Assembly: GCA_013824245.1 (NCBI GenBank)
Contig: PNNN01000011.1
Location: 43,396 to 107,395 of the forward strand
DNA from: Chlorobiaceae bacterium
Lineage (GTDB): Bacteria; Bacteroidota; Ignavibacteria; UBA10030; SZUA-254
Length of the DNA stretch: 64,000 bases
Direction: 5' to 3'
Part shown: positions 2,800-10,120 of the stretch, piece after piece
Position numbering within the stretch: the first letter of the stretch is position 1
How the letters are laid out: each line of letters opens with the position of its first letter
Program-made: the position numbers and the translations under genes
The notes under the pieces: model-generated
The model's input: only the letters and a program-made list of their open reading frames with translations
What the model was told of the DNA's origin: nothing
Databases searched by the model: none

Positions 2800-3507
2800 A
2801 TGGAGTTAATCACAGGTTTCATATTCGGGATTTTGGGAAGTTTGCACTGCATAGGCATGTGCGGACCAATTGTTTTGGCGTTGCCTGTAGGTGAGCAATC
2901 GACCTTAAAATTCACATTTGGAAGAACATTGTATCATCTTGGCAGAGTAATAAGTTACGCGCTCATGGGTATTGCTGTAGGATTGGTGGGAGGGAAACTG
3001 CTTCTCCCAATATTTCAACAAAATCTTTCGATAATCGTAGGGGCGCTTCTCGTTCTTACCGTATTGTTTCCGAAAGTGGTTAGATCAACAAAGTATCTTC
3101 AAAAAATATTCGATCCGGTTACTCAAAAACTTACAGTGATGATCGGCAAACTATTGCAAAGTAAAAATATTGCTTCCATGCTCACGCTTGGATTTTTAAA
3201 CGGATTTCTTCCGTGCGGGTTTGTTTATATGGCAATATCAACGGCGGCAGTTACAGGTGGTTTGCTTGCCGGAATGCTGTTCATGATCGGTTTCGGTTTT
3301 GGAACAATTCCATCGATGCTTACTGTATCCTTTTTCCCCAAACTTATTTCCGCAAATTTCAGATTGAAAATTGTAAAATTTCTTCCCGCACTTCAGGTTA
3401 TCATCGGATTATTGTTAATTATTCGGGGACTGAATTTGGGGATACCATATCTAAGCCCAAAACTTGCGAAGATGATTCCCACAGATGGCGGAGGGTGCTG
3501 CCATTAG
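2800..3507 (+). CDS. DsbD_2 / sulfite-exporter TauE-SafE-like polytopic membrane protein with HCxxMCGP and C-terminal GGGCCH metal-binding motifs
   Basis: HCIGMCGP near the N-terminus, LPCG mid-protein and about six TM helices. This family sits downstream of fixH in Bacteroidetes cco clusters. Confidence 0.6.
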   Translation: MELITGFIFGILGSLHCIGMCGPIVLALPVGEQSTLKFTFGRTLYHLGRVISYALMGIAVGLVGGKLLLPIFQQNLSIIVGALLVLTVLFPKVVRSTKYLQKIFDPVTQKLTVMIGKLLQSKNIASMLTLGFLNGFLPCGFVYMAISTAAVTGGLLAGMLFMIGFGFGTIPSMLTVSFFPKLISANFRLKIVKFLPALQVIIGLLLIIRGLNLGIPYLSPKLAKMIPTDGGGCCH

Positions 3508-3797: not shown

Positions 3798-4367
3798 ATG
3801 AAGAAATCGCTTTTAGATTATACGCTCCGCATTCGGCTTCCAATCGTACTGTTTGTCGCTGTAGCCGTATCGGTGATTACGTACTTTGTTTCGCGAGCCG
3901 AGCGTGATGGTGTTGGTTACGCGCCGGTTCAGCCGATTGCCTTCTCGCATAAACTCCATGCGGGTACGATGCGGATTGATTGTAAATATTGCCATACCGG
4001 AGTAACATCTTCTCCCAACGCTATGGTGCCGCCCGCGAGCACCTGCATGAACTGCCACAGCGTTGCGCGCAAGAACAAACCCGAAATTATAAAGCTTACG
4101 AAATTTTATCAGGACAGCACCGCAATTCCATGGAAACGAGTTCATAAAGTTCCCGATTATGCTTACTTCAACCACAGCGCGCATGTGAATAAGGGAATAG
4201 ATTGCGCTAACTGTCATGGAAAAGTTGAGAACATGGATGTCGTTCAGCAAGTGTCTGAATTTACTATGGCGGCGTGTTTGAATTGCCACCGCAACGCCAC
4301 GACTCAATTAACGAATGTCCTGAATATTAAAAATGGTCCCACAAACTGTTCAGCGTGTCATCGATGA
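3798..4367 (+). CDS. actA: alternative complex III subunit ActA (pentahaem cytochrome c)
   Basis: N-terminal TM anchor plus five CxxCH motifs (CKYCH, CMNCH, CANCH, CLNCH, CSACH). First gene of the actABCDEF-order cluster. Confidence 0.9.
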   Translation: MKKSLLDYTLRIRLPIVLFVAVAVSVITYFVSRAERDGVGYAPVQPIAFSHKLHAGTMRIDCKYCHTGVTSSPNAMVPPASTCMNCHSVARKNKPEIIKLTKFYQDSTAIPWKRVHKVPDYAYFNHSAHVNKGIDCANCHGKVENMDVVQQVSEFTMAACLNCHRNATTQLTNVLNIKNGPTNCSACHR

Positions 4368-4555
4368 TTATGAAGAATGAAATAAAGCGGCGTAAATTTT
4401 TCGGATACATCCTTGGCGGATTAGCCGGCGGGATATTTTCGGCGAATGCAACTTCACTGATCGCTAAAACAAAGAAGATTTTTAAATCGGAAGAGAAAAT
4501 TGTCGTGAAGCAAAATCCTTTAGCGGTTCCGCGAAAGAAAGATGAAGCACGTTAA
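4364..4555 (+). CDS. small ORF encoding a canonical twin-arginine (Tat) signal-like peptide / single-TM micro-protein
   Basis: Its ATG overlaps the actA stop (ATGA), and its 3' end overlaps the actB start by 14 nt. The encoded peptide is MIMKNEIKRRKFFGYILGGLAGGIFSANATSLIAKTKK...: an n-region, an RRKFF motif, a hydrophobic h-region and a charged tail. Confidence 0.35.
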   Translation: MIMKNEIKRRKFFGYILGGLAGGIFSANATSLIAKTKKIFKSEEKIVVKQNPLAVPRKKDEAR

Positions 4556-7500
4556 GATGCCTAACGATAAAAAATACTGGAAGAGTTTAAGCGAATATCA
4601 GGATGAGGGCGCATCACGCCCGATGAAAGAGAATGAATTCATCGATGGTGCTACAGAGGAGTTCGGACTTTCGAATCTTTCGCCGATCTCGCGCAAAAAG
4701 TTTATTGCGCTTCTTTCCGCATCTACCGCTTTTGCCATGGCGGGATGCAGCAATTATAAAGACCGCGGAGAGATAGTTCCTTACAGTAAAAAGCCGGAAA
4801 ATGTTACGCCCGGTGTCGCGAACTACTATGCTTCAACTTGCAATGGATGCAGTCAGTCGTGTGGAATCTTGATCAAAACCCGAGAAGGCAGACCAATCAA
4901 AGTTGATGGAAATCCTGATCATCCTATCAATCGTGGAAAAATTTGCGCAAAAGGACAAGCGGGTATCCTGAATTTATACGACCCGTACAGATTACGCGCA
5001 CCGCAATATGGGACAGCTTCGGGGCGATTGGAAGACCTATCATGGCAAATTGCGGACGCTGAAGTGATTAAGAAATTAGAGGAATCAGTCAAGAGTGGAA
5101 AAGAGATAGCCATCGTTGCTCATTCAATTTACTCACCGACAACAAAAAAAGTTTTAGATGATTTTTCGGCTAAATATCCGACTACAAAAATTTATACTTA
5201 CGATATTTTGAATGACGAAAACCGAAAGCACGCATGGAGTAAAAGTTACGGAACAACTAACTTGCCTGTGATAGAATGGGAGAAAGCAAAAGTTATATTA
5301 GCACTTGAAGCAGACTTCCTCGGAACCGATGGCATGACAGTTGAGCAAACACGAAAGTATGCCGATGGGCGAGACATCATGAAGTCGAAAGAGTTCAATC
5401 GACTTTATTCTGTTGAAGGAACAATGTCGTTAACCGGCGCGAATGCTGACTATCGATTGTGTCTCAGTCCCGATGCTCAACTTGAATTTGTTCTCGTCCT
5501 GATTGATGAAATCTCTAAAAAGATTGGTATCATCAACGCTCTTCCGCTAAGTGGTTCCCTCAAATCGTTCATGAATAAATATTTACTCGATGAAAATATC
5601 ATCAATCATCTCATCGAAGATTTACTGAAAAATCATGGTCAGTCTATCGTCTATGCCGGGAATATTTTATCCGAAGAGATTCACGTTGCGGTCAATTATC
5701 TGAATGAAATTCTCGGTAATGCGAAATTATATCACCCAAACCAAACTTTAACATCTTTAGTAACCTTAACAGAACCAAAGGAGTTTGAGAATCTTGTCGG
5801 TAAGATGAGATCGGGAAATGTCGGTGTTGTGATTCATTTTGATACAAATCCTGTCTATCATTTTCCGATAGATTTCGGTTACGAACAGGCAATGAAATTT
5901 GTTCCGCTGATTGTAAGTTTAGTCGAAACTGATAATGAGACATCGCGTTTATCTAATTTTGTTCTGCCAATCAATCACGCATTCGAATCTTGGGGTGATT
6001 ACCAAATACGAACGGGCATTTATTCGTTTCAACAACCGGTTATTGCTCCTCTATATAATACACGACAGAAGGAATCGATCCTATTAACATGGATTAGCGG
6101 TAAAGATTCTTATAAAGATACAATCTATCATGAATATTTGATGAACAGGTGGCAAAAGGAACTGTTCCCGTCGCTCGACAGAAAAGTAGATTTTAAATCG
6201 TTCTGGTATTCTTCTCTTCACGACGGAGTTGTGGAATATGACCGCGCGGCAAAAAATAATTACAGCTTCAACAAAGGATCGCTTTCTTCGATTGCACTAA
6301 TGCAAAGTACATCGGGGTTCACCGTTGCTTTGACCGAAAGTTATTTCATGGGTGATGGACGATTTACTAATAACGGATGGCTTCAGGAGCTTCCGCATCC
6401 TGTTTCAAAAATCGTCTGGGATAATTATGCGGCAATCTCACCTAAAAGTGCAAAAGATTTGAATATTGAAAACAACGATCTAGTTGAGATAAAAATTTCG
6501 GACAGGAAAGCAATGTTACCCATATTTTTACAACCCGGACAAGCAGATAATTTAATTTCAATCGCACTTGGCTATGGAAGAAGGAACGCCGGACCAATTG
6601 GGACAGATGTTGGTGTGAATGGAAATCTTTTGCTCTCTAAAGAATCCATTGCTGCATCTCGAATTCTCCAAGGCGCTGTAATTCGAAAAGTAGAAGGGAA
6701 GCATGAACTCGTTTCCACGCAGGAACATCATTCGCTTGATGATGAGTTTGTAAAAGATCTCCATCATAAACGGAAAATCATTCAAGAGGGAACGCTTGGA
6801 AAATACGAAAAGAATCCGAACTTCCTTCATGAAGAAAAACATGAATTGTTCAACATTGCCAAGACCGTCGAATATAACGGCGTTAAGTGGGCGATGGCAA
6901 TCGATCTTAACAAATGCACGGGCTGTAATGTTTGCGTTGCAGGATGTAACGTTGAGAACAATATTCCAGTCGTTGGAAAAGAGCAGGTAGGCAAAGGGCG
7001 CGAGATGCAGTGGATTCGCATCGACCGCTATTATTCCGGCACGAATGAAAATCCGTCGCTCAGTCATCAGCCGATGCTTTGCCAGCATTGCGATAATGCG
7101 CCGTGCGAAAATGTTTGCCCGGTTGTTGCCACAAACCACAGCCCCGACGGATTGAATCAAATGGTTTACAACCGTTGTGTCGGTACGAAATATTGTTCGA
7201 ATAACTGTCCGTATAAAGTACGCCGCTTCAACTTCTTTAACTGGCGCGATAATTTAGCAGATGGATATTACGAAGAAGAACCGATCAGCTTATCGCACAA
7301 TCCGGAAGTTACAATTAGGTCACGCGGCGTGATGGAAAAATGTACATTCTGCATTCAACGCATCATGGAGGCGCGTCAACATGCAACTGAACAGGGAAAA
7401 GTTTTAGTTGGAACCGATGTAAAAACTGCCTGCGAAGAAGCATGCCCTGCGTCGGCAATAATTTTTGGAGATATGAACGACCCGGGTTCAGAAATATCAA

Positions 7501-7610
7501 AATACCGGAAGCATGAACTTGGTTACCATGTATTAGAAGAAGTAAATGCCAAACCCAACGTAACATACCTTGCCCGGCTGAGGAATGTTAATGAGGAGAA
7601 AACTGCGTGA
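4542..7610 (+). CDS. actB: alternative complex III subunit ActB (fused B1/B2: molybdopterin-like domain plus 4Fe-4S ferredoxin domain)
   Basis: N-terminus [10 protein letters not shown]... is typical of Bacteroidetes ActB. An internal [20 protein letters not shown] Tat/lipobox-like segment is present. C-terminal FeS cysteine clusters are present ([46 protein letters not shown]). Confidence 0.9.
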
Positions 7611-8974
7611 GCACGACGGTGATTGATTATACGAAAGAACTACCTGTTGTTGAAGGACGACCCACTGCATCGCAGATTGAAGTTGTTGTCACCGCTCCAC
7701 TCGATCAATTCCCGCCGCGTAAATGGTGGTATGCTTTTGCGGTTACACTTTCGATGCTTTCGATTGGCGGATTTTGTATTGGTATGTCTCTTTATAAAGG
7801 ATTGGGACTCTGGGGAGTTAACCAACCTGTTGGCTGGGGATTCGATATAGTGAACTTTGTCTTCTGGGTGGGAATCGGTCATGCTGGAACATTGATATCA
7901 GCAATTTTATTTTTACTCCGACAAAGATGGCGGACAGGCATCGCACGTTTCGCAGAAGCTATGACCATCTTTGCAGTTATGTGCGCCGGATTATTTCCGC
8001 TAATGCACACAGGAAGACAATGGCTTCCGATGTATTTGACTCCATATCCCAACCAACACGGACTGTGGGTGAACTTTACATCGCCATTATTGTGGGATGT
8101 GTTTGCAGTCTCAACTTATTTTACTGTGTCGTTAGTGTTTTGGTATTTGGGATTGATTCCCGACTTGGCAACTTTGCGCGACAGAACAACGAGCAAGATC
8201 AAAAAAACAATCTATTCGATCTTCAGTTTGGGATGGCGCCATTCTAACCGGCATTGGCAGCATTACGAACGCGCATATCTGATACTCGCGGGCTTTGCAA
8301 CTCCGCTGGTTCTCTCAGTTCATACAATAGTGAGTTTCGATTTTGCAGTATCTGTGATACCGGGATGGCATACAACAATTTTTCCGCCATACTTTGTGGC
8401 AGGCGCGGTCTTCTCCGGCTTTGCGATGGTGCAAAATGTTTTAATTTTTGTCAGACAATATTTCAATCTCAAACATATCATCACGTTAGATCATCTTGAA
8501 AAGATGAACAAAGTCATGGTACTCACAGGTAGTATGGTTGGATATGCGTACGCGATGGAATTCTTCATCGCCTGGTACAGTGGAAGCCAATTTGAAACAT
8601 TCGTCTTTTTGAATCGCGCGCTCGGTCCATATTCGTGGGCATACTGGACAATGGTAAGTTGTAACGTAATTTTCCCACAACTTTTCTGGATCAAGAAAAT
8701 CAGGCGTTCTATTCCGGCTATGTTTCTTATCGGGATTACAGTCAATATCGGCATGTGGTTCGAAAGATTTGTCATTGTTGTAACATCGCTTTCAAGAGAT
8801 TTCCTGCCGTCGAGTTGGGGGCATTACACTCCGACGCTTTACGATGCCGGATTATTCCTCGGTAGTTTTGGTTTATTCTTCACACTGATTTTGATTTTTG
8901 TGAGAGTATTACCTGTTGTCTCAATATCGGAAGTAAAGGCGGTTGTCGAGGGAGCGCAGCCGAGTCATCATTAA
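7607..8974 (+). CDS. actC: alternative complex III subunit ActC (NrfD/PsrC-like polytopic quinol-interacting membrane subunit)
   Basis: About 455 aa and roughly 10 TM helices. It overlaps the actB stop and sits at the expected operon position. Confidence 0.85.
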
Positions 8975-8980
8975 AAAAGT

Positions 8981-10120
8981 ATGAGTACAAAACAATTATA
9001 TTCTATAACAGCGCTTTTCGATTCACCGGATGAAATTATCCATGCGGCGTCAGAGACGAGTAAAGCGGGTTACACTAAGTACGATGTGAATACGCCTTAT
9101 CCGGTTCACGGAATGGATGGAGCGATGCAGTTGAAGCCGTCGCGCCTCGGATTTTTTGCAATGGCGTTCGGGTTGCTTGGAGCGGTTTCAGCAATTGGTT
9201 TCATGACTTGGGTAACATTAATCGAGTATCCGCTTGTGATTGGTGGTAAACCGTTCTGGTCATGGCCCGCATTTGTGCCGGTTTCGTTTGAACTAACAGT
9301 ACTTCTTGCCTCGGTTCTGTCTGTTGTTGCGATGATCGTTATCTATTTTAAATTTCCGAACAACGCTCATCCGCTTCACGACACAAAATATATGAAGGCA
9401 GTTTCGTCCGATAAATTCGGCATAAATATTCAGGCAGAAGATCCGAAATTTGATGAGAAAGCTGTTACGGAGTTTTTCAAATCACTCGGCGGTAAAGAAA
9501 TTACCCCAGTTTATTTTGATGAAGATGAATTAAGCCACGGTCAAAAATTATTCGATCCTAAATTTATTGGGATATTGGCTGTAGTAGCTGTGATTGCATC
9601 CGGAACAACGTACTTTATATTCAATCAATTAATGTTCATGCCGCCGTTCAACTGGATGATGACGCAGGAGAAATTGAAGGCACAAAAACCGAGCGAGTTA
9701 TTTTCCGATGGTATCGGAATGCGTAATCCGGTTGATGGAACTGTTGCGCGTGGATTTTTACCGTACCCATTTAAGGGGCAGCTCGATTCTGTCGGAAAAT
9801 ATTTAGTGAATCCGTTGTTACCCACAAAAGAAGTTTTGGAAACCGGAAAACAGAAATATCTCACATTTTGCAGTCCATGCCACGGAAATTTTGCGCAAGG
9901 CGACAGTCGCCTTCGGGGACAATTCCCAAATCCGCCTACGCTTCATTCCGATAAAGTACGAAATTGGCACGACGGAAATATCTATCATGTTATCACAGAG
10001 GGACAGAACGTGATGCCGAGTTACGCGCCACAGATTGCACGCGACGACCGCTGGGCAATTATTCATTATCTCCGGGCATTACAACGCGCACAGAACGCAA
10101 AGGAATCCGATTTCAAGTGA
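8981..10120 (+). CDS. actDE: ActD (DUF3341-like) fused to ActE (monohaem cytochrome c)
   Basis: The N-terminal half is ActD-like with TM helices. The C-terminal half carries CSPCHG...MPSY, a class I c-type cytochrome. Confidence 0.75.
   Translation: MSTKQLYSITALFDSPDEIIHAASETSKAGYTKYDVNTPYPVHGMDGAMQLKPSRLGFFAMAFGLLGAVSAIGFMTWVTLIEYPLVIGGKPFWSWPAFVPVSFELTVLLASVLSVVAMIVIYFKFPNNAHPLHDTKYMKAVSSDKFGINIQAEDPKFDEKAVTEFFKSLGGKEITPVYFDEDELSHGQKLFDPKFIGILAVVAVIASGTTYFIFNQLMFMPPFNWMMTQEKLKAQKPSELFSDGIGMRNPVDGTVARGFLPYPFKGQLDSVGKYLVNPLLPTKEVLETGKQKYLTFCSPCHGNFAQGDSRLRGQFPNPPTLHSDKVRNWHDGNIYHVITEGQNVMPSYAPQIARDDRWAIIHYLRALQRAQNAKESDFK

Follow-up and report, generated by a model that had tools for sequence, protein, structure and literature searches.

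In many bacteria, alternative complex III (ACIII) takes the place of the bc1 complex, and little is understood of its assembly. The ACIII operon considered here lies in a 64,000-nt stretch of contig PNNN01000011.1 from the GenBank assembly GCA_013824245.1 (hereinafter, the window denotes this whole stretch) and consists of actA, actB, actC, an actD-actE fusion and actF, with a small open reading frame (micro-ORF) inserted between actA and actB. The question is what this micro-ORF represents. According to the initial annotation, it encodes a peptide resembling a twin-arginine translocation (Tat) signal, next to an ActB with an RK variant of the same motif, and three alternatives were put forward: the micro-ORF could be a real ACIII micro-subunit with a single transmembrane (TM) helix, a relic of a signal-peptide duplication, or a consequence of an assembly error splitting ActB. 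Our firm result is that it is a gene spread over the whole class; Tat targeting shared by its product (the micro-protein) and ActB is suggested by the comparison of loci, but is unproven.

Boundaries of the micro-ORF and its coupling to the adjacent genes

The micro-ORF occupies positions 4364..4555 of the plus strand and encodes 63 amino acids (aa) followed by the TAA stop codon at 4553-4555. Its ATG overlaps the TGA stop codon of actA (4365-4367) in the ATGA configuration, as had been described initially. The length had been given as 61-63 codons, and only the upper value stands: the conserved start is ATG 4364, yielding 63 aa, and the second ATG at 4370, which corresponds to the 61-aa hypothetical protein MBA4311448.1 in NCBI, is replaced by a leucine or isoleucine codon in the relatives L001, L007 and L014.

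The start of actB also had to be revised. The previously reported 14-nt overlap of the micro-ORF with actB exists only if the latter starts at ATG 4542 (MKHVKMPND...), and this start of the longest ORF is missing in the close relatives L001 and L007 and is probably wrong. The ATG at 4557, situated 1 nt past the micro-ORF stop (TAAgATG in the window, TAAnATG in its clade), is retained in the close relatives L001-L009 and L014 and is used by gene callers in L001-L004, L007 and L009; in general, the callers are split among the relatives between ActB lengths of 1022 aa and 1017 aa. The initial statement that the micro-ORF is not a frameshifted N-terminus of ActB is thereby upheld as far as the completeness of this N-terminus is concerned, whereas the clean start is at 4557, not at 4542.

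In remoter clades, the micro-ORF overlaps actB by 8-11 nt. The offset between the micro-ORF stop and the actB start differs among clades and takes all three phases (+1, -8, -11, +11, +25, +26 and +27 nt), which rules out a programmed frameshift fusing the micro-ORF to ActB, a possibility that we considered separately. Judging by the overlaps at the junctions, the micro-ORF is translationally coupled to both actA and actB. Its last codons (R-K-K-D/E, of the AAG GAA type) overlap a purine-rich stretch preceding the actB start, so that the extreme C-terminus could owe some of its conservation to constraint at the nucleotide level; the NPxAVxR core of the conserved C-terminal motif, described below, is situated further upstream.

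Distribution and selection

Six close homologues of the micro-protein were found in public data (73-100% identity, 61-66 aa), all annotated as hypothetical, and in each of those looked up the micro-ORF was situated between a 189-aa actA and actB. A profile built from these seven sequences and compared with 1.84 billion representative proteins retrieved 16 clusters, all of 60-96 aa, while iterated searches in a collection of 5.8 billion proteins yielded 194 and 135 clusters, those listed being 50-111 aa long and also hypothetical. The sources of the clusters are nearly all metagenome-assembled genomes (MAGs) labelled Bacteroidota, Ignavibacteriales or Melioribacteraceae. Four distant members with 27-42% identity to the window sequence are likewise flanked by actA and actB, with actC and actDE coming next, and the gene order actA, micro-ORF, actB, actC, actDE was observed in every look-up, down to 27% identity.

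Two scans with ActB added 160 loci, half of them (80) from species-representative genomes and the other 80 from metagenomes. The genome records bear Ignavibacteria-type names or the name "Bacteroidota bacterium", and a few labels (Chitinophagaceae, Acidobacteriota) may be due to misbinning; the metagenome contigs have no organism names. Among the loci with available upstream DNA, the micro-ORF was found upstream of actB in 162 of 164, as established with the family hidden Markov model (HMM) and by inspection of the HMM misses. In the two exceptions, which represent one metagenome-sample lineage, actA is followed directly by actB with a gap of about 75 nt and no micro-ORF (L156, actA ending at ~704 and actB starting at 782; L170, ~1012 and 1088, respectively).

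Alignment of related ACIII operons, which had been suggested initially as a check, confirmed the conservation of the micro-ORF. Pairwise dN/dS ratios (the Nei-Gojobori method, the window against four relatives) were 0.07-0.23 for the micro-ORF, 0.08-0.10 for the first 400 codons of actB, and mostly 0.13-0.27 for the first 63 codons of actB, with 0.02 for the closest pair, L001-L007; in the remoter pairs, synonymous sites are near saturation. An ORF kept in frame across about 160 independently assembled loci is far beyond what chance would produce, and the dN/dS values, similar to those of actB, indicate ordinary purifying selection on a protein; the micro-ORF is thus a real small gene.

A separate observation concerns the mosaic pattern of similarity across positions 3798-5800. 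ActA from the window is 97% identical at the aa level to that of L001/L007 and 87% to that of L005/L008; the micro-protein is 85-87% identical to L005/L008 and only 71-74% to L001/L007, and actB again sides with L001/L007. This mosaic suggests a recombination tract around the micro-ORF.

The gene appears to have been passed over previously. The micro-protein matched no family above the threshold in Pfam and NCBIfam, and its family profile compared with all PDB chains, including the ACIII structures 6F0K, 6BTM, 6LOD and 8K9E, had no ACIII match at E <= 10. By these PDB, Pfam and NCBIfam comparisons, it has no homology to the described subunits ActA-ActH, the ActG sequence being outside the direct comparison. 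In the ACIII literature that we searched, the only extra subunits described are ActG and ActH (PMC5928083). The ACIII genes listed in the I. album genome paper are IALB_1386, 1388, 1389, 1390 and 1391, skipping 1387 (PMC3362086), and IALB_1387 is the slot where the micro-ORF would sit; an exact look-up of the I. album-type micro-protein sequence returned no entry. In the supplements for M. roseus, MROS_0044 is ActB and MROS_0046 is a polyprenyl synthetase, MROS_0045 having no entry. These tags leave one for actA and none for the micro-ORF, and therefore the published proteome could not detect the micro-protein. Thus, the micro-ORF is a hitherto undescribed, class-wide small gene in Ignavibacteria-type ACIII operons.

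Two Tat-type signals with a reciprocal twin-arginine pattern

Since the micro-ORF is a gene, we turn to the signals encoded by it and by actB. The initial reading of the micro-protein as a Tat-like peptide agrees with the translation: the twin-arginine motif K8-R9-R10-K11-F12-F13 (4385..4402, plus strand), identified by family conservation and weak profile matches to Tat signals, is followed by a Gly/Ala-rich hydrophobic stretch and a basic tail. The RK variant in ActB is confirmed as well, namely the motif S45-R46-K47-K48-F49-I50 (4689..4706, plus strand; from the translation and the clade alignment), with S45, R46 and K47 invariant within the window's clade. It is preceded by an N-terminal extension (KKYWKSL...EF..G; 4569..4703, plus strand) matching NCBIfam TIGR04519 MoCo_extend_TAT ("TAT-variant-translocated molybdopterin oxidoreductase") with a score of 26.1 bits against the cutoff of 20.6, and followed by the lipobox M-A-G-C64 (4737..4748, plus strand), the predicted site of lipoprotein cleavage and acylation, in which G63 and C64 are invariant. 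A cysteine occupies the lipobox position in all ActB N-termini that could be parsed, and in Bacteroidota ActB is lipidated, as in the F. johnsoniae structure. In the ActB proteins of the solved Chloroflexus and R. marinus ACIII, the motif contains RR (ISRRTFL and TSRRQFL, respectively).

Both motifs were readable in 162 loci. In 67 of these, ActB has RK and the micro-protein has RR; in 75, ActB has RR and the micro-protein has RK, RN or RT; in the remaining 20, both have RR, and no locus combines a non-RR ActB with a non-RR micro-protein. Both loci devoid of the micro-ORF carry an RR-type ActB (SRRKFLAISAATTA, RR intact), and the ActB proteins with RR from the solved complexes come from lineages in which a gene of this kind has not been described. 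The connection between the RR peptide and the RK-type ActB that had been suspected in the initial annotation is supported by this reciprocal pattern.

In a tree of 140 non-redundant ActB sequences, the micro-protein RR is invariant in all 55 tips with an RK-type ActB (39% of the tree length), and at least eight parsimony changes of the second arginine of the micro-protein all fall on the background of an RR-type ActB, which constitutes 61% of the tree length (0.61^8 = 0.02). This is suggestive of a tighter constraint on the micro-protein RR where the ActB RR is degenerate, as would be expected if both signals served one export event.

One further ActB sequence deserves mention here. In L021, the motif near nucleotide 200 is SRIQFLAL, with isoleucine in place of the second arginine or lysine, and is thus more degenerate than RK; the contig stops before the position of the micro-ORF.

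Anatomy of the micro-protein

The following statistics refer to 58 diverse family members, with lengths of 53-78 aa. The family motif is R-[RKNT]-x-F-F, R9 being invariant and R10 and F12 conserved in at least 90% of members; the second arginine is often replaced by K, N or T in clades with an RR-type ActB. The window motif, K-R-R-K-F-F-G, agrees with the Tat consensus [ST]-R-R-x-F-L-K and lies where the N-region gives way to the hydrophobic region. The latter is an uncharged Gly/Ala-rich segment, F12-A34, followed by the basic KTKK (4397..4465, plus strand; from the translation, family statistics and the AF2 model). For the longest uncharged run, the median is 15.5 residues and the range 8-23, the window member being the extreme at 23, and the best 19-residue Kyte-Doolittle window has a median mean of 1.46. 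A short, moderately hydrophobic Gly/Ala-rich region combined with basic "Sec-avoidance" residues, KTKK in the window, is what is expected of a Tat signal. The stretch thus resembles that of a signal peptide and appears short and weak for a TM helix. The initial proposal of a real single-TM micro-subunit is supported, within the reach of sequence analysis, as regards a conserved, selected, coupled and co-varying gene, whereas the single TM helix is doubtful for the family.

Both flanks are basic, with median net charges of +4 for the N-flank and +6 for the tail of about 25-35 residues. The tail contains a conserved C-terminal motif, K45-IVVKQNPLAVPRK-K59 in the window (4496..4540, plus strand; defined by residue conservation), with the family consensus K-[IV]-x-[IV]-x-I-[NH]-P-x-A-V-x-R-x-K, where P52 and R57 are invariant and A54 and V55 are conserved in at least 90% of members. 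With hydrophobic and polar residues alternating, the motif may form an amphipathic beta-strand that leads into an NP turn. The AF2 model based on an alignment of 65 sequences comprises a helix at 9-40 and an extended tail (mean pLDDT of 79 for all 63 residues), the block with the C-terminal motif being extended with pLDDT of 73-85.

The only similarities to database sequences are to Tat signals and are below the thresholds: PsbQ transit peptides and Rieske N-termini in PDB (E 0.1-2.7) and the Rieske "TAT signal" family PF10399 in Pfam (E 0.027). When the micro-protein was compared with the N-terminus of ActB by hhalign, 19 columns comprising the RR motif and the hydrophobic region were aligned with a probability of 64%; the similarity ends with the hydrophobic region, and there is no sign of an ActB origin for the C-terminal motif. 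With only these generic columns aligned and the gene under selection, the initially proposed relic of a signal-peptide duplication is not sustained. A duplicate comprising both the ActB signal and the first mature residues (AVPRKK versus IVPYSKK) was rejected as well, given the 19-column limit of the alignment and the fact that the proline is not conserved in the family.

Shared Tat targeting as the favoured explanation

On balance, we consider it moderately probable that the micro-protein is a lineage-specific accessory peptide of ACIII sharing Tat targeting with ActB. From the sequences we infer Tat dependence of the micro-protein, its binding to ActB, the co-export of the two proteins and the final location of the micro-protein, as well as its physical association with ACIII. 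The micro-protein would be produced by translational coupling, its start overlapping the actA stop and its stop abutting or overlapping the actB start, and its tail would bind folded ActB, which as an FeS subunit assembled in the cytoplasm has to be exported by Tat. The reciprocal RR pattern lends indirect support to such a putative cytoplasmic complex prior to export. ActB and the micro-protein would then reach TatBC as a single cargo bearing two signal peptides, of which one intact twin-arginine would suffice, so that RK, RN or RT could arise in one partner or the other but never in the two together. For the window's clade, this scheme has RR supplied by the micro-protein, and the RK signal of ActB would mainly provide the lipobox, at which ActB would subsequently be processed. 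The micro-protein probably remains with ACIII after the export and is probably uncleaved.

A more specific variant of this scheme, which we regard as tentative and rather unlikely, is that Tat targeting and lipoprotein processing of ActB are split between two polypeptides. The micro-protein would act in trans as a free-standing Tat signal, docking on folded ActB via the NPxAVxR strand and presenting its twin-arginine to TatBC, whereas the RK signal of ActB would be freed from Tat recognition and serve mainly as a lipobox substrate of Lgt and LspA. If this is the case, split targeting would provide a natural detachable Tat signal and an example of two-signal cargo recognition.

Several points weigh against shared Tat targeting. 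Firstly, the reciprocal pattern is inflated by shared ancestry and reflects few independent events: in a neighbour-joining tree of 81 ActB sequences, parsimony required two changes in ActB and four in the micro-protein, and the permutation test was not significant (P = 0.18), so that phylogeny-aware P values are about 0.02-0.18. Secondly, single R-to-K variants can remain Tat-competent, and "degenerate" may overstate the loss. Thirdly, ActB everywhere keeps its own complete signal and lipobox (S-R-[RK]-x-F, the hydrophobic region and the cysteine), and therefore its pair with the micro-protein is not a classical hitchhiker. Further, no conserved small-x-small (AxA) signal-peptidase site was seen in the aligned family members that we inspected; a site L-I-A|K is possible in the window's clade, and Ignavibacterium-type members have FPMKYFSK instead. 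By analogy with Rieske proteins, the signal may stay uncleaved. Finally, with the charges of the tail and the N-flank as given above, topology is not fixed by charge rules, and the AF2 model of the lone peptide, a helix with an extended tail, is uninformative about the partner.

Comparison with known systems

The closest functional analogue of the micro-protein would be the partner that carries the signal in a Tat hitchhiker pair, such as the gamma subunit of the Burkholderia FAD-glucose dehydrogenase (PMC6719666), PaoA of E. coli PaoABC (PMC4273604) or the small subunit of [NiFe]-hydrogenase. As in these pairs, a partner with an RR signal is encoded beside a cofactor-containing subunit that crosses the membrane folded, and one RR per complex appears to be enough. 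However, the hitchhiker partners are folded proteins of at least 150 aa and their passengers lack any signal, whereas the micro-protein comprises little beyond a signal peptide and a tail of 25-35 residues, its co-export is putative, and the passenger ActB retains a Tat-type signal with a lipobox and so deviates from the defining feature of the class.

Non-universal ACIII components provide a second parallel. ActG has one TM helix and does not occur in every act cluster, and ActH (Rmar_1979) is a periplasmic three-helix bundle found only in R. marinus (PMC5928083). The micro-protein is likewise small, lineage-restricted and cofactor-less, and these two subunits set a precedent for clade-specific ACIII extras; the micro-protein differs from them by its Tat-type motif and by the position of its gene between actA and actB, actG being placed at the cluster's end and the locus tag of ActH being unrelated to the cluster.

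TIGR02811 ("formate dehydrogenase region TAT target") unites small proteins with RR signals encoded beside formate dehydrogenase genes. They resemble the micro-protein in having at most 70 aa, a twin-arginine signal and a short conserved C-terminal motif, in their location beside a gene of a molybdopterin-family oxidoreductase, and in their uncharacterised function, but differ from it in C-terminal motif, host enzyme and taxon. The micro-protein did not match TIGR02811 in the NCBIfam scan at E <= 1, which yielded only two unrelated weak matches. The uncleaved Tat signal-anchors of Rieske FeS proteins (PF10399 UCR_Fe-S_N, PF25471) are similar to it in that RR is followed by a Gly/Ala-rich helix, which in the Rieske proteins stays attached as a membrane anchor. 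With E values of 0.009-2.7, the matches are far below the threshold; the micro-protein lacks a Rieske domain, and most family members have a shorter hydrophobic stretch.

Alternative explanations

The strongest alternative, which seems unlikely, is that the micro-protein is an ordinary single-pass subunit of ACIII with an ActG-like role, inserted by Sec and YidC, the arginines being flanking charges unrelated to the export of ActB. The single long helix modelled by AF2 (residues 9-40), the 23 uncharged residues of the window member, the lack of a conserved signal-peptidase site in the aligned sequences, the sufficiency of RK, RN or RT in many lineages and the precedent of the non-universal small subunits ActG and ActH (PMC5928083) all agree with it. 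On the other hand, the uncharged run is only 12-16 residues in most members, with the low hydrophobicity reported above, and the whole R-R-x-F-F pattern is conserved, which goes beyond charge alone. Moreover, the tail with its charge of +6 would have to cross the membrane contrary to the positive-inside rule, and the reciprocal RR pattern with ActB is not predicted by this model.

It is less probable still that the micro-protein serves as a maturation factor or escort and is not part of the finished complex. On the cytoplasmic side, it would bind TatBC or the ActB precursor while FeS insertion and targeting take place. Tight translational coupling immediately upstream of actB would be natural for such a factor, as would the co-variation of its Tat-like motif with that of ActB; the ActB N-terminal extension (TIGR04519) could be its binding site, and the basic tail fits a cytoplasmic location. 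However, the known Tat proofreading chaperones TorD, DmsD and NapD are soluble folded proteins without RR, a 60-aa escort resembling a signal peptide has no known precedent, and co-export fits the same data equally well.

The possibility that the peptide has no function, the ORF persisting only for coupling or as a leader, or else as a copy of the ActB signal in decay, we regard as very improbable. The start and stop overlaps with actA and actB, the possible nucleotide-level constraint on the last codons within the purine-rich stretch, and the hhalign similarity to the ActB signal are all compatible with it, but the low dN/dS holds across the entire ORF, specific residues, among them P52, A54, V55 and R57, all encoded well upstream of the actB start, stay conserved although overall identity is 25-40%, the length is kept within the range given above in diverse members, and the similarity to ActB ends after the hydrophobic region. 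As for an assembly or sequencing artefact, e.g. an indel splitting ActB (as had been suggested initially) or ActA, it is only an a priori possibility in a MAG and is excluded by the comparative data, given that independent genome and metagenome assemblies show the three-gene arrangement with intact frames at about 160 loci, that ActB starts with its full conserved N-terminus (TIGR04519), and that the frame offset between the micro-ORF and actB differs among clades.

Implications

The micro-ORF is a candidate for a new ACIII subunit or assembly factor, annotated as hypothetical and passed over in the description of the I. album ACIII. The reciprocal loss of the twin-arginine may be seen as a natural experiment on the number of RR motifs needed by a Tat cargo with several signals, and it also bears on the way in which Tat targeting and lipoprotein processing are combined. 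Purification of ACIII is not known from any member of Ignavibacteria; cultures of I. album and M. roseus exist, and so both questions are testable. In general, small ORFs of respiratory operons merit systematic annotation, as illustrated by the absence of the micro-ORF from the annotation of M. roseus.

Genomic context and additional observations

The operon begins with actA (3798..4367, plus strand), encoding a 189-aa pentahaem cytochrome c subunit with an N-terminal hydrophobic helix, which contains five CXXCH motifs and matches Cytochrome_C7/CIII in Pfam and a QrcA-like family in NCBIfam. The actB gene (4557..7610, plus strand; 1017 aa, conserved start ATG 4557) encodes the molybdopterin-like domain B1 fused to the FeS domain B2, and the best PDB matches of its product are the ActB chains of the solved ACIII. 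It is followed by actC (7607-8974), a member of the NrfD family, and by the actD-actE fusion (8981-10120; 379 aa), with the Pfam domains ActD and Cytochrome_CBB3, the ActE part being monohaem. The fusion is present in all relatives looked up and has also been reported for IALB_1390 of I. album (PMC3362086). Genes for cytochrome c and an oxidase are located downstream of actF, and genes for cbb3-oxidase maturation, FixG-like and FixH-like by comparison with L001, are located 5' of the operon; a DsbD_2 protein is encoded among the latter (2800-3507).

The label of the source MAG, "Chlorobiaceae bacterium", is probably imprecise, as the ACIII operon and its close relatives group with MAGs labelled Ignavibacteria or "Bacteroidota bacterium".

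Finally, ActB of the window has a full CxxCxxxC...C motif (4830-4965, about residues 92-136), ending with ...GKICAKG and covered by the Pfam domain Molybdop_Fe4S4 (E = 8e-15). This is the motif of the N-terminal [4Fe-4S] domain of Mo/W-bisPGD enzymes, and its four cysteines are invariant in all aligned relatives. The solved ActB chains do not have these four cysteines (Chloroflexus, ASTLTLGGYGTG; R. marinus, ATAMPFRGSVRP; F. johnsoniae, ATTVFDGFDFAN). Hence, to judge from the motif, ActB of the Ignavibacteria type may bind an extra FeS cluster in B1.

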